A DNA stretch of 64,000 nucleotides from Chloroflexota bacterium (GTDB lineage: Bacteria > Chloroflexota > Dehalococcoidia > Lucifugimonadales > Australimonadaceae), in NCBI GenBank assembly GCA_027618515.1, contig JAQCEV010000004.1:355-64354 (forward strand). The letters run 5' to 3'. The notes below the pieces were generated by a model. That model had not been told where the DNA came from. It made no database searches and saw nothing but the letters and a program-made list of their open reading frames with translations. Positions 440 through 48,683 of this stretch are shown here, one piece after another (within the stretch, counting starts at the first letter, position 1; each line of letters starts with the position of its first letter). Position numbers and translations under genes: made by a program.

Positions 440-474
440 GTGCGGGCCCCATCGGGGGCCCGCACCTTTTTTTT
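440..474 (+). terminator. Rho-independent terminator
   Basis: GTGCGGGCCCC-ATCG-GGGGCCCGCAC stem followed by T8. Confidence 0.85.
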
Positions 475-535
475 GGGCGTGCTTGGTTGCATCGGCGGGG
501 TGCTAGTATCTGGTGAACGACTGAGGGAGGGCACG

Positions 536-751
536 ATGAATAAGGACGATCAGTACCTGATGGTCCGGATGCGCAGCTGATACCGCTCTTGAAGAGGTAA
601 CTTCGAAGAGACCACGGGGATGGTCTCCAGCGTGTTTGGATATACGGCAGAGCAGCTCGCGAAAAAGCTCAAAGAGGTTGCTGCGGAGAAAGCTTTCGAT
701 CCGGAGTACAAGGAGTTGCGCGAAGGCTTGCCGGAAAAGTTCCTGTTCTAA
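536..751 (+). CDS. Candidate 71-aa selenoprotein with two in-frame UGA codons (S-U-Y-R-S-U)
   Basis: RBS GAGGGAGG then ATG at 536; TGA at 578-580 and 590-592; the frame continues with protein-like sequence to TAA at 749-751; SECIS-like hairpins at 586-610 and 608-627. Confidence 0.6.
586..627 (+). promoter_or_regulatory. Two overlapping SECIS-like hairpins
   Basis: CTCTTGAAG-AGGTAA-CTTC(G)AAGAG with its loop 14 nt after UGA1, and GAGACCA-CGGGGA-TGGTCTC with its loop 22 nt after UGA2; G at loop position 2 in both. Confidence 0.55.
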
Positions 752-1523
752 GGACTGCGACTAGGTAGGCTGGGGAGTCGCACCTGCAACTGGCGCATGT
801 TCAAACGTGCGCCCGCCCAGGATTCACGTCGGCCGGTGATGGCCTGGATATGGCCGTCCCACTCAAGATTCCACGCCTCGATGCCTAGTTTCACCGCGCG
901 CCGCACACGATCTTGCGTCTCGTCGTCGAGCGCTAGCTTGCGGATGAGCTCGATCTGTCGTGAGCCGTGGCCGATATCTTGCTCGGCGTGTAGCTTGTAG
1001 GTCTCAGCGGCGTGTTCAGAGAAACCGTAGTGGCCGACGAGTTCCGGGTAGGCGATGCCCGCCGCCCCATCGTGACCACCATGCTGGGCTTCCACCAAAG
1101 CCAACATGGCGACGCCTTCTAAAGCAGAACGCCTCTGGCAATGGCAAGGATCATCTCGATCGCTGCCAGAGTGCCGGGGGCGGGATCGGCGTTGTCGGCG
1201 TCCTCGCGGGAGATGCCACCCTCTTCCAGGAACTGGAACATGATGTCCACGTGGGAGCGCTCGCCTGCGAGTTCTTCCATGTAATTTTCCAGTACGACTT
1301 CGGAAAGGCCAGGCACGCGCTCGGAGGCTGCGTTGACGGCGATGTAGCCGAAGTAGACGGGGTTTTCCCGCACGCGCAGGTAGTGTTGGACCTCACCGAT
1401 GACGATCTCTTCGCGGGTCCAGCGGTGATTGGCAATGCCCTGGAACCACGGGTGCTCCCTCATGGGCACCTGCAGTGCGTAATCCCAAAGCTCTGCGATG
1501 AAGTCGTCAGGTTTCTGGGCCAT
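748..1523 (-). pseudogene. Heme-oxygenase-like diiron enzyme (CADD/PqqC/TenA superfamily), split by a 1-nt frameshift near 1145
   Basis: N-half (MAQKPDD...EELAGERSH) and C-half (VEAQ...HAEQDIGH) lie in different frames; restoring one base gives continuous IEMILxHCQRRSALEGVAMLALVEAQH. Confidence 0.75.
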
Positions 1524-2854: not shown

Positions 2855-4261
2855 CTACGCACCCCGCTCGGCGGCTGATCCGCCTTTGTATGCTTCGGGG
2901 CTGAACGCTCTGGGCCACTTGCCTAGCGAAGTGCCCACGGCCAATCCCAGCATCTTCTTGCTGATGACGATGGCCGTGAACATGCTGATGAGCACGCCGA
3001 TGGTCAAGGCCACGGCGAACCCGGTAACAGAGGAGTTGGCGCCGCTACTGCCGAAGAAGAATAGGACGGCGGCGATGACGAGCGTGGAGACGTTGCCGTC
3101 CCTGATGGATGTCCAAGCGCGGTTGAATCCGATCTGCACGGCGAACGGGAGCGTACGCCCGATGCGGATCTCTTCTTTCATGCGCTCGAAGATCAGGATG
3201 TTGGCATCCACGGCCATACCGAGGGAGATGATGAAACCCGCAAGCCCTGCAAGGGTGAGGGTTACGGGGAAGAGCTTGAAGACGGCGAGAACCATGGCTG
3301 TGTAGAACACCAATGCCACTGCCGCGACGAGCCCGGCGAGCCGGTAGTACGCAATCATGAAGAAGAGGACGAGCGCGAGGCCGATGAGACCTGCTTGCAG
3401 CGCTTGGTCCAAGGAATCCGCGCCAAGTGACGCTGCGACGAAGGCCGATGAGAGCTCGGTGATCTCGATGGGCAAACGACCAGACTCGACCTGGATGGCG
3501 AGCTTACGCACTTCTTCCGCGCTGAAGTTGCCGTTGATCTGGCCGCTGCCGGCCAAGATTGGACTGGACACCACGGCTGCTACCAGAACCACTCCGTCCA
3601 TACGGAAGGCTAGTTGGTCAGGCGTGCCGCCCACGACGTTGGTGTAGTACAACTTGGTTGTGAGGTCGGCGAATTTGGATGCTGCTCCGCGATTCAGTTC
3701 GAACAGCAGGATCGGTTCGCCGGTTACGGTGTTAGTGCCGGCAAATGCCGTGGACATGTCCGATCCGGAGAGGCCGGAGGGCTGATCCGTGAAGTTCCCT
3801 GGGGCGGTTTCGTCGCACGGATAGGCGGTGCAGATGCGCTCGACGATTTCCAAGAGTGCGGTCGAGCCGATCAGCGACTTTGCTGCCTCTTCGTCCTCAA
3901 GACCCGGTAGCTGAATCACTAAGCGGTCGGTGCCTAGTTGCTGGATGCTTGGCTCTGCCACTCCGAGTTTGTTCACGCGGCGGGTGATGTTGTCCACAAG
4001 CCCGGCCATCTGGTCGGCGGTGGGCTCGAAGCCGTCCTCGCCAGCCTGATACACGAGGTGGATACCGCCGACGAGGTCGAGACCGAGGCTGAGGCCGAGG
4101 GGCTCACTAGAGCCACGCTCGAAGCTTCCTAGGTCGATGTTTTTGACCGCAAGCGTCGCGAATGAACCGCCAACCAAGATGATCATGGTTAGAGGCCAAC
4201 GCAATCGATAGGGCCATACGAAGAGGACGGTGGCGATGCCGCTGAGAATGGTTTGCAACAC
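2855..4261 (-). CDS. secD: Protein translocase subunit SecD
   Basis: LGLDLVGG, QLPG and GMAVDANILIFERMKEE motifs. Confidence 0.95.
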   Translation of the reverse strand: MLQTILSGIATVLFVWPYRLRWPLTMIILVGGSFATLAVKNIDLGSFERGSSEPLGLSLGLDLVGGIHLVYQAGEDGFEPTADQMAGLVDNITRRVNKLGVAEPSIQQLGTDRLVIQLPGLEDEEAAKSLIGSTALLEIVERICTAYPCDETAPGNFTDQPSGLSGSDMSTAFAGTNTVTGEPILLFELNRGAASKFADLTTKLYYTNVVGGTPDQLAFRMDGVVLVAAVVSSPILAGSGQINGNFSAEEVRKLAIQVESGRLPIEITELSSAFVAASLGADSLDQALQAGLIGLALVLFFMIAYYRLAGLVAAVALVFYTAMVLAVFKLFPVTLTLAGLAGFIISLGMAVDANILIFERMKEEIRIGRTLPFAVQIGFNRAWTSIRDGNVSTLVIAAVLFFFGSSGANSSVTGFAVALTIGVLISMFTAIVISKKMLGLAVGTSLGKWPRAFSPEAYKGGSAAERGA

Positions 4262-4471
4262 GTTCTAGATGAGGTGGCGAATGCCACCGTGCCTTTCGGT
4301 AAGCCTGGCAGCGGGCGTGTTCAAGTTCGGGGTGAACCGAAACTGCGCCTGCATGTGGGGATCGGGGCAGGGTGCGCGAACCGTTGACGCTGCGTTGGTC
4401 GCAGAGCGCACTAAGAGCGGATTCTATCACGCGGAGGTACTGTCCCGGAATCGGTCGCGGAGCAGGATTGG

Positions 4472-4651
4472 CTAGTCGTTGCTTGCAGGGGCAGCGATTG
4501 GGAGCGCGCACGCTTGAATCTTGCCCACGTAGTGCCCGTCGTCAGTGCAGGCTTTGAAGCTCGCGCCAGGCGCATAGACCTCACCGCAATCGTGGCACTC
4601 GTACCCGAGATCGTTGTCTTCTTCATGTGCGGTGGAGTGCGCGTCGGGCAT
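4472..4651 (-). CDS. 59-aa Cys/His-containing small protein (possible zinc ribbon), not in the ORF track
   Basis: ATG just after the def stop; MPDAHSTAHEEDNDLGYECHDCGEVYAPGASFKACTDDGHYVGKIQACALPIAAPASND*. Confidence 0.5.
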   Translation of the reverse strand: MPDAHSTAHEEDNDLGYECHDCGEVYAPGASFKACTDDGHYVGKIQACALPIAAPASND

Positions 4652-4653
4652 GC

Positions 4654-5253
4654 CTACTCTTTTCCCAGGCTGGGTTCTGGTGATTCAGCAGGTGCGCTGT
4701 CGCCTTCTTCCTGAGTGTCAGATCCGTCTTCACCAGGCGGGCGGGGCTCGCCCTCGCCATGTTCCTCGGCGCCATTGTCGACCTCAAAGAGGTCTTCTTT
4801 GGCGCGTAGGTAATCGACGTACAGCTTGCCATCTAGGTGGTCGGCTTCGTGTTCGAGAGCCTGGGCGAGCAGGTCTTCGACGCCTTTGTACTTGATGGGC
4901 TTGCCATCAAGGCCAACCGCGCGAGCCCACACTTGCTCAGCGCGAGGTATGTAGCCCTGCCAGCCAGGGAGGCTGAGGCAACCTTCGGTGACCTCACGCT
5001 CGCCTTCTTTGCGGGTGATCTCTAAGTTGATGAGGACGGTGGGCTCTTCGTCGTCTGGTAGCTGGATCACGCAGATCCGCTTCAGCGATCCGACCTGGTT
5101 AGCGGCTAGACCGACACCATAGTAGTAGTACATGGATTCGATCATGTCCGCAGCCAGCTTGTGCAGTTCAGGGTCGTCGAAATCGCGAACCTTGATGGCC
5201 TTCTCTCGAAGGATCGGGTCGTGGCCCACGTAGTGCATCGGAAGGATCGCCAT
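4654..5253 (-). CDS. def: Peptide deformylase
   Basis: GVGLAANQVG, EGCLS and EHEADHLDG motifs. Confidence 0.95.
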   Translation of the reverse strand: MAILPMHYVGHDPILREKAIKVRDFDDPELHKLAADMIESMYYYYGVGLAANQVGSLKRICVIQLPDDEEPTVLINLEITRKEGEREVTEGCLSLPGWQGYIPRAEQVWARAVGLDGKPIKYKGVEDLLAQALEHEADHLDGKLYVDYLRAKEDLFEVDNGAEEHGEGEPRPPGEDGSDTQEEGDSAPAESPEPSLGKE

Positions 5254-48491: not shown

Positions 48492-48683
48492 ATGCGCTAC
48501 GCAATCGCTTGAGCGGATCTCGGGGTGGTCTGGTGTGACCACGAGGTTATTACGGATAACGCCGACGATCTGGTGAATGAAGCCCGGGCTCACGCCGTGG
48601 CCGTCCACGTGCAGGACCATGAGGCGTTCGACTCCGTTGAGTACGGCTTGCTGGTGAAGGCCGCGATGCGTGAGGTCGAGTAG
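48492..48683 (+). CDS. Candidate selenoprotein, DUF1059-like small metal-binding protein (U at residue 7)
   Basis: RBS AGGAGG; MRYAIA-TGA-ADLGVVWCDHEVITDNADDLVNEARAHAVAVHVQDHEAFDSVEYGLLVKAAMREVE*; the TGA falls at the Cys of the C-x-D-x-G..C / H-x4-H pattern; SECIS-like hairpin follows. Confidence 0.7.
48517..48547 (+). promoter_or_regulatory. SECIS-like hairpin
   Basis: ATCTC(GGG)GTGGTC-TGGTGT-GACCACGAGGT; loop starts 18 nt after the UGA at 48510-48512. Confidence 0.6.

Follow-up and report, generated by a model that had tools for sequence, protein, structure and literature searches.

A candidate double-selenocysteine protein family linked to a heme-oxygenase-like diiron oxidase in Chloroflexota, with cysteine-containing relatives in archaea

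Genes and signals at the locus

The stretch of DNA analyzed here (the window) comprises 64,000 nucleotides of contig JAQCEV010000004.1 from a Chloroflexota genome (assembly GCA_027618515.1, referred to below as G000). Near its start, a small gene with two in-frame TGA codons lies between the terminator of an upstream gene and a convergent oxidase gene. The features of the locus are as follows:

440..474, plus strand: intrinsic terminator of the upstream gene, with an 11-bp stem and a T tail (by folding; z = -3.55)
504..509, plus strand: possible but weak -10 hexamer, TAGTAT, with TG one base earlier, 26 nt before the ATG
523..530, plus strand: Shine-Dalgarno sequence, GAGGGAGG
536..751, plus strand: 71-codon gene for a predicted four-helix protein with the motif U-x-x-x-U (Sec15 and Sec19), from the sequence, its homologs and a structural model
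578..580, plus strand: UGA1, read as Sec15, aligned with Cys in an archaeal family and in one Chloroflexota copy
590..592, plus strand: UGA2, read as Sec19, doubling as the 5' arm of hairpin 1 (by alignment and folding)
590..605, plus strand: conserved core of hairpin 1, UGAAG/CUUCG, with its loop at 595-600; the hairpin extends to 586-610 only in this genus
608..627, plus strand: hairpin 2, the putative SECIS proper, GAGACCA-CGGGNA-TGGTCTC, -9.2 kcal/mol, with the loop CGGGNA in 57 of 57 copies
620..622, plus strand: Met29, the false start from which gene callers produce 43-aa database fragments (from the list of open reading frames and database records)
761..1523, minus strand: gene for a heme-oxygenase-like dimetal oxidase (HDO), PF14518/CADD-like (PF14518 above cut-off), convergent with the small gene

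The frame runs from the ATG at 536 to the TAA at 749-751 and, with TGA read as Sec, encodes 71 residues. When the sequence was re-read, the coordinates, start, both TGAs and translation given in the first-pass annotation all proved correct, and the terminator that it had placed before the gene was found at 440-465, where it separates the upstream gene from the small one. The spacing between TAGTAT and the ATG is the same in copies L022 and L029. A sigma-70 scan of this region of the window gave no promoter, and a search of positions 380-900 against Rfam gave no match at E values up to 1. Expression is hinted at only by one 151-nt contig of depth 2 over 620-770 in an RNA run, which DNA could explain.

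The annotation had also predicted that gene callers would miss the gene. The standard list of open reading frames does show just the 43-aa piece from ATG 620, and the protein databases (protein records alone) hold 95 short fragments, nearly all of which start at Met29. TGA is an ordinary stop elsewhere, as had been stated: priA ends in TGA, as do 102 of 537 long coding-like open reading frames of the genome, which rules out a genome-wide reassignment of the code.

Conservation of the reading frame in Chloroflexota

Among 57 distinct coding sequences of the small gene, 56 have TGA at both codon 15 and codon 19, and one has TGT at both. All 56 Sec copies carry TGA at these two codons alone, have no internal TAA or TAG and end with a stop directly after codon 71, a degree of conservation well above what chance would give. 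The gene is present, each time with two TGAs, in 18 of 61 related genomes (G000 included; weak matches L039-L041, with E values of 0.06-0.09, were left out), and a sample of 401 genomes across the phylum gave 15 strong matches (leaving out L104-L106, with E values of 0.001-0.01). A scan of genomes from all species found 48 loci, all in Chloroflexota, with patterns that could miss divergent copies. Plasmid and phage collections searched with protein P0013 gave no match, and a weak negative comes from 8000 scored candidates, in which no longer fused forms (234-2000 aa) were found. The protein of G000 and its congener G001 sits on a long branch (0.6) in the tree, and codon 70 encodes Leu in the window versus Pro in 56 of the 57 copies; the closely similar contigs X3 and X4 described below have Pro.

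A start at ATG 620 had been named as the outcome to expect if the N-terminal codons were not conserved. Codons 2-14 are conserved: among Sec copies they differ by 0.29, 0.18 and 0.41 at the three codon positions, compared with 0.70, 0.68 and 0.70 upstream, and this pattern indicates that the stretch before UGA1 is coding. In 44 copies codon 1 is itself a start codon, and in 12 a start codon lies one or two codons further upstream. Of the 57 copies, 27 have a -10-like hexamer 5-8 nt ahead of the start, which suggests that many mRNAs of the small gene may be leaderless; a loose Shine-Dalgarno match is present in 23 of the 57. In the upstream regions of the Dehalococcoidia copies L023-L068, many have TACAAT or TAGAAT 6-7 nt before the ATG and lack a Shine-Dalgarno sequence.

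Cysteine-containing homologs

The single Cys/Cys copy from Chloroflexota (L092, in genome G438; L070 and P0006 have the identical sequence) is nested inside the Sec clade in a tree that is based on a short alignment and leaves many forks open. Hairpin 1 is lost in this copy and hairpin 2 is weakened to -6.6 kcal/mol. Searches of G438 (80 per cent complete) found none of SelA, SelB, tRNA-Sec and SelD; the switch to Cys goes with an absence of detectable sel genes.

A profile search of 1.84 billion representative sequences gave 118 matches. With the exception of P0006, the named members of the Cys family are archaeal and come from Thermoplasmata, Heimdall-, Hod- and Thorarchaeota, Sulfolobaceae and Marsarchaeota. 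The archaeal and Chloroflexota families align over all 71 columns (hhalign, 99.8 per cent; E value 1e-29). Residues other than Cys at codons 15 and 19 had been proposed as a sign that the TGAs are nonsense mutations, but the homologs carry either TGA or Cys at these codons, with the exception of P0119, whose N-terminus is unrelated and lacks the cysteines. P0119 is one of 28 longer or unusual matches that were retrieved, of which 24 have CxxxC at both positions and three begin at Met29 or shortly before it. CxxxC is also present in all 113 new proteins of a follow-up search. The Cys/Cys pairs of 80 out of 80 metagenome loci were dropped as evidence, because the scan pattern had required both cysteines, and a search of the ESM Atlas with an archaeal Cys homolog returned just unnamed clusters with a score of 0.76, which is uninformative. 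The Cys version is present in the named archaeon Sulfodiicoccus acidiphilus (P0168), which we take to be in culture, so that the function could be tested without expression of a selenoprotein.

Selenocysteine machinery

The first-pass annotation would have been contradicted by a genome without selA, selB and selC. G000, which is 93.8 per cent complete, has SelA, SelB, tRNA-Sec and SelD, all above cut-offs; its SelD gene itself carries an in-frame TGA, and the tRNA-Sec is its only tRNA with a UCA anticodon (ARAGORN). SelB was found in 56 of the 61 related genomes and, being nearly universal there, does not discriminate carriers of the small gene; it is present in 16 of the 18 carriers, and the remaining two have SelA and tRNA-Sec. 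Among the other TGA-bearing genomes of the phylum sample, 13 of 13 have at least one tested sel component (SelB in nine of nine tested, SelA or SelD in the other four); SelD was not found in G122.

Twelve other Sec candidates in G000, SelD included, fold with loops 16-27 nt from the UGA. The scan that yielded them allowed spacings of 10-39 nt and demanded GG in the loop; in this reference set just the spacing is therefore informative, and the GG is no evidence.

Several Sec candidates of G000 belong to recognizable families. Window positions 48492-48683 (plus strand) encode a candidate 63-aa DUF1059-like selenoprotein (PF06348, E value 1.2e-4, above cut-off), in which TGA takes the place of the first conserved Cys and a TGGTGT-loop hairpin follows 18 nt later. 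Locus L200 (G000:C141:19347-19922) encodes a zinc-type alcohol dehydrogenase (PF08240) in which a TGA (GV-U-GSD) occupies a Cys-like position, presumably that of the catalytic zinc Cys, followed by a GG hairpin of -14 kcal/mol. Neither DUF1059 nor the family of L200 appears in Table 1 of PMC13188914. A DUF427 protein (L201, G000:C123:21731-22510) has an in-frame TGA and a GG hairpin, and nine candidates (L199 and L202-L209) fall into known families: DUF3179 (two), deiodinase-like, rhodanese, AhpC/TSA, OsmC, CMD/AhpD (two) and AhpF-N/thioredoxin-like.

Hairpins and the decoding of two UGAs

The first-pass annotation had assigned a SECIS-like hairpin to each UGA. For hairpin 2 the assignment holds up well. 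Its perfect 7-bp stem is present as described, and its loop (CGGGGA, 615-620) begins at a distance of 22 nt from UGA2 and 34 nt from UGA1. The bacterial SECIS model calls for a G in the first two loop positions, a loop 16-37 nt after the UGA and an energy of at most -7.5 kcal/mol (PMC13188914, in the legend of Fig. 2), and a subset of real SECIS elements fails the consensus model, according to the accessible part of the same paper. Hairpin 2 agrees with all four constraints of the model for UGA2 and, at 34 nt, with the spacing rule for UGA1. Its stem codons have no synonymous variation, while the free loop base varies, and L103 has a compensatory change from A-U to C-G.

Hairpin 1 as a SECIS of its own for UGA1 is plausible, with sub-canonical spacing: it has the loop G, but its loop (AGGTAA, 595-600) starts only 14 nt after UGA1 and its energy is -7.1 kcal/mol in the window (-4.0 to -4.5 in many close relatives). 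The 9-bp stem described earlier is there, interrupted by one bulged G. An overlap of the two hairpins at 608-610, from which consecutive folding had been proposed, exists in the window and is complete in just two of the 56 Sec copies, both from this genus. All 43 distinct segments preserve the five pairs of the core, in which one change is compensatory and two are wobbles. In free folds, the central pair probability is below 0.5 in 11 of 56 copies.

Hairpin energies are not significantly lower than those of dinucleotide shuffles (z from -0.3 to -1.9), and the case therefore rests on comparison. Counted over the two helices together, double-sided changes occur in three pairs, versus 1.1 in shuffles, in a test that is inflated by relatedness. 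Residues 20-31 are frozen in Sec copies and variable in Cys homologs; residues 25, 27, 28 and 31, in particular, are nearly fixed in Sec copies and variable in 68 archaeal-type copies. Together with the invariant stem codons, these fixed residues point to selection on the RNA.

The GG of hairpin 1 occurs in 51 of 56 Sec copies and in none of the 68 archaeal-type copies, which favors a second SECIS. On the other hand, the five Sec copies without this GG keep a stronger stem, so that one SECIS may serve both codons; L097 and L102 have no G at the first two positions of loop 1, and their genomes have SelB and tRNA-Sec. Judging from these comparisons, hairpin 1 probably acts as a structure in some lineages, where hairpin 2 would serve both codons. 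Two SECIS elements and one SECIS with a spacer seem about equally probable, and the arrangement may differ by lineage.

We propose that SelB would read hairpin 2, through its CGGGNA loop, for UGA2. A ribosome at UGA1 would meet hairpin 1, which starts 9 nt downstream and has UGA2 inside it; hairpin 1 would either bind SelB or, by being folded, bring hairpin 2 within reach of UGA1, and would have to melt before UGA2 is read. This family would allow the bacterial decoding of UGAs spaced 12 nt apart to be studied in a natural setting, including natural variants in which the stem of hairpin 1 is kept and the GG loop is lost.

Predicted protein and family status

AlphaFold2 models of the Sec protein and the archaeal protein have four helices and no strand (pLDDT 88 and 93). 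In both, residue 15 lies inside helix 1 and residue 19 at its end, with the two Sec or Cys residues on one face of the helix. Met29 never varies in either family, and Met12 hardly varies.

Taking the alignments, machinery and models together, the gene almost certainly encodes a real 71-residue selenoprotein in which Sec15 and Sec19 would lie one helical turn apart, in helix 1 of a small four-helix bundle. That Sec is not inserted, and that the product is instead a 43-aa protein from Met29 with the TGAs being nonsense or coding for another residue, is hardly credible. The short database fragments from Met29 would fit such a product, as would the failure of hairpin 1 to reach the 16-nt minimum and the -7.5 kcal/mol threshold, but the coding pattern of codons 2-14, the -10-like box before codon 1 in 27 of the 57 copies, the alignment of TGA with Cys at both sites, tRNA-Sec as the lone UCA tRNA of G000 and the coincidence of the Cys switch with no detectable sel genes all argue against it.

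The first-pass annotation did not recognize the family, and neither did our searches. The window protein (P0001) had no NCBIfam match at E values up to 5 and a single Pfam match, PF13769, at an E value of 0.18; Cys homologs gave nothing above cut-off in Pfam or NCBIfam. Foldseek returned no match at E values up to 0.001. The best hit was a designed protein in one fold search (Z 7.2, rmsd 2.7, 63 residues aligned) and a structure with Z 6.2 in another (rmsd 2.6, 53 aligned). Structural neighbors represent common helical arrangements, mostly helix-turn-helix (HTH) domains, and the absence of a clear match does not show a new fold.

We found no match to the Pfam, NCBIfam or TIGR models of the 119 catalogued selenoprotein families in Table 1 of PMC13188914, for those families that have such a model. 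The motif UxxxU is likewise absent from the table, some rows of which give no motif. BSepDB searched known families only (PMC13326102, part of the text), and deep-Sep reported new families from its own test genomes, with no mention of Chloroflexota in the part of PMC12013277 at hand. We found no published description of the family, although one may exist in Haft and Tolstoy (2025) or in Deng et al. (2026). On the sequence evidence, the proteins are an uncatalogued putative double-Sec family whose Sec spacing is new and whose model is all-helical, represented in bacteria and, by its Cys form, in archaea.

A diiron oxidase linked to the small gene in two domains

The first-pass annotation missed a conserved link between the small gene and the neighboring diiron oxidase gene. 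HDO is encoded in 51 of the 57 Chloroflexota loci, mostly convergent with and adjacent to the small gene; being convergent, the two are not co-transcribed. Across the 61 related genomes, an HDO ortholog occurs in 17 of the 18 carriers and in one non-carrier, and 42 genomes have neither gene; the two discordant genomes are 79 and 60 per cent complete. In the 401-genome phylum sample, HDO was found in 14 of 15 carriers and in none of the other 386 genomes at an E value of 1e-30. Because related genomes are not independent, these counts overstate the co-occurrence, part of which could be explained by a co-moving gene block.

A third gene, upstream in 46 of the 57 loci, encodes a 130-aa Ig-like protein that belongs to no family and is found in exactly the same 18 of the 61 genomes as the small gene. 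The Ig-like gene of G000 is on another contig (L197:113-466, G000:C115) and divergent, with 29 per cent identity. Atlas clusters of the Ig-like protein include Myxococcota and Ca. Binatota.

The HDO gene of the window is frameshifted: compared with near-identical strains, single bases are missing near 1144 and near 775. The same two losses are seen in run X1, possibly the source sample itself, whereas contigs X3 and X4, from two other studies and about 97 per cent identical, have both bases and keep both TGAs of the small gene. The congener G001 has lost the 5' half of HDO by deletion and kept the Sec gene, and G002 has neither. These cases may reflect decay of the module in this genus, or a function of the small protein apart from the oxidase. 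At the congener locus L042 (about 3930-4900), the HDO remainder abuts the end of secF and the remaining frame is open. L054 and L089 also have HDO split by a frameshift, for which sequencing error is possible. Flags of one TGA in the oxidases of G155 and G415 raised the candidate of a Sec-containing oxidase, which we rejected because they were not internal stops in tblastn alignments.

Archaeal-type loci, from unlabelled metagenome contigs judged archaeal by similarity, have a different gene order. Among the best 80 of 121 such loci, an oxidase gene comes next on the same strand in 72, and the remaining eight contigs end within 223 nt; the gap between the two genes is 13-66 nt in 40 complete pairs. 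The archaeal-type oxidase is a zf-C2H2_9 domain fused to a TenA/HDO domain. Ta0938, which has a weak TRASH match, follows in 51 of the same best 80 of 121 loci. L107-L186 display this conserved archaeal-type operon of a CxxxC protein, zf-C2H2_9-TenA/HDO and Ta0938, and we found no description of the three-gene operon in the literature. The two oxidase types are about 23 per cent identical (hhalign, 86 per cent) and have a QH[FY]LR motif in common. The Chloroflexota HDO retains the 3-His/3-carboxylate ligand positions, at a conservation of at least 95 per cent over 73 aligned sequences, and the archaeal-type oxidase has Gly at one of the His positions. The link between the small gene and HDO recurs in two domains of life, with different gene orders.

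Proposed role and alternatives

From this gene context, the small protein is probably a dedicated accessory or partner of the co-inherited CADD-like diiron oxidase, within a module of three genes whose third member would be the Ig-like protein in Chloroflexota and Ta0938 in archaea. HDOs need re-reduction, a consequence of the state in which they react. They activate O2 at a diferrous site, and most of those studied need no protein effector (PMC13108848, in the part available). Most likely, though at less than even odds, the small protein would alternate between a selenol and a diselenide form (thiol and disulfide in archaea), passing reducing equivalents to HDO and so returning its diferric center to the O2-reactive diferrous state. 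Taken as a whole, a redox accessory of HDO with two Sec residues is our best explanation, which we hold tentatively and at somewhat less than an even chance. A broader version, in which a four-helix shuttle is the physiological HDO reductant across domains and a single SECIS serves both Sec codons, with a transient UGA2 hairpin shortening the reach, is unlikely.

The first-pass annotation had left the choice between redox activity and metal binding open, and on the present evidence we infer that metal binding is about as likely as a diselenide-type redox role. Two residues at positions i and i+4 of a helix are no less suited to binding a metal than to forming a diselenide. A double-Sec metal chaperone or an Fe-S, Cu or Zn carrier, in which Sec15 and Sec19 together with Met29 or a second monomer would bind a metal that is handed to HDO or regulates it, is somewhat less probable than the redox role. 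The placement of both Sec or Cys residues on one helix face agrees with it, as do the invariant Met29 and nearly invariant Met12, the Cys-rich parts of the archaeal operon (the zf-C2H2_9 domain and Ta0938, with its weak TRASH match) and the estimate that about 70 per cent of predicted selenoprotein ligand interactions involve metals (PMC13188914, in the accessible part); however, a monomer offers two chalcogen ligands only, known metallochaperone folds gave no standout match and Ta0938 is replaced by the unrelated Ig-like protein in Chloroflexota.

Two further roles are improbable. The small protein could be a substrate of HDO, a RiPP-like precursor modified near the U/C-x-x-x-U/C helix, as the tight linkage and the length fixed at 71 codons would allow and as is the case for the HDO MboA, which acts on a tripeptide (PMC13185094, in the part available). 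The predicted bundle is well folded, though (pLDDT 88 and 93), with no leader and core layout, and the neighboring gene clusters contain no conserved transporter or other tailoring enzyme; an M32 peptidase cluster accompanies just eight of the best 80 of 121 archaeal-type loci. Alternatively, an HTH-like regulator of the module could sense redox state or metal. Most of the best structural neighbors are HTH domains (Z 5-6), the arrangement of helix 2, Gly and helix 3 is HTH-like and the gene often has its own promoter. Against this role, Z values below 8 indicate a common arrangement according to the tool's own note, helix 3 (the would-be recognition helix) is poorly conserved, the protein is acidic (median net charge -7 in Sec copies and -2 in archaeal copies) and no HTH model of Pfam matches.

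Comparison with known systems

Selenocysteine insertion and double-Sec proteins as such are already known. The small gene resembles other bacterial SECIS genes in having UGA aligned with Cys, a GG-loop hairpin 3' of the UGA and selA, selB, selC and selD in the genome. It differs from them in that the second of its UGAs, 12 nt after the first, is enclosed in a conserved hairpin, whose loop starts 14 nt from UGA1, compared with the 16-nt minimum.

Predicted double-Sec families include a metal-binding one (NF041115, UxxU), an FmdB-like one (TIGR02605, UxxU), a Prx-like one (UxxU), TsoB (NF045694, UxxxxU) and MbdU (NF045648), as given in Table 1 of PMC13188914. They share with the window family a pair of Sec residues, closely spaced in the UxxU and UxxxxU cases, and a basis in computational prediction only; the window family differs in its UxxxU spacing, its lack of a model match and its all-alpha structure. 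Thioredoxin-fold oxidoreductases are alpha/beta proteins with (U/C)xx(U/C) at a helix start, whereas the predicted small protein has no strand and a three-residue spacing.

The nearest solved relative of the HDO is the 4-aminobenzoate synthase CADD (CT610; PDB 1rcw and 8va9; E value 1.6e-12). HDO scores 59 bits against the 200-bit cut-off of TIGR04305, has Phe at the position of Tyr27, which we take to be the tyrosine that CADD sacrifices, and has no Lys at the position of Lys152, presumably also of functional importance in CADD; its reaction therefore probably differs from that of CADD.

The closest parallel to the proposed partnership is MboB, reported as perhaps the first dedicated HDO redox partner, for MboA (PMC13185094, in the part available). 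Like the small gene, the gene for MboB lies beside that of an HDO, and its proposed role is regeneration of the diiron center. MboB is an NAD(P)H/flavin/2Fe-2S reductase, whereas the window protein has 71 residues, no such domain in Pfam or NCBIfam searches and a putative role; the lack of a reductase domain lowers the probability that it is an MboB, not that it works like one. With one dedicated partner described in the literature covered here (PMC13185094), this double-Sec protein, which gene callers cut to 43 aa, is a candidate for the re-reduction or metal loading of an HDO in vivo.
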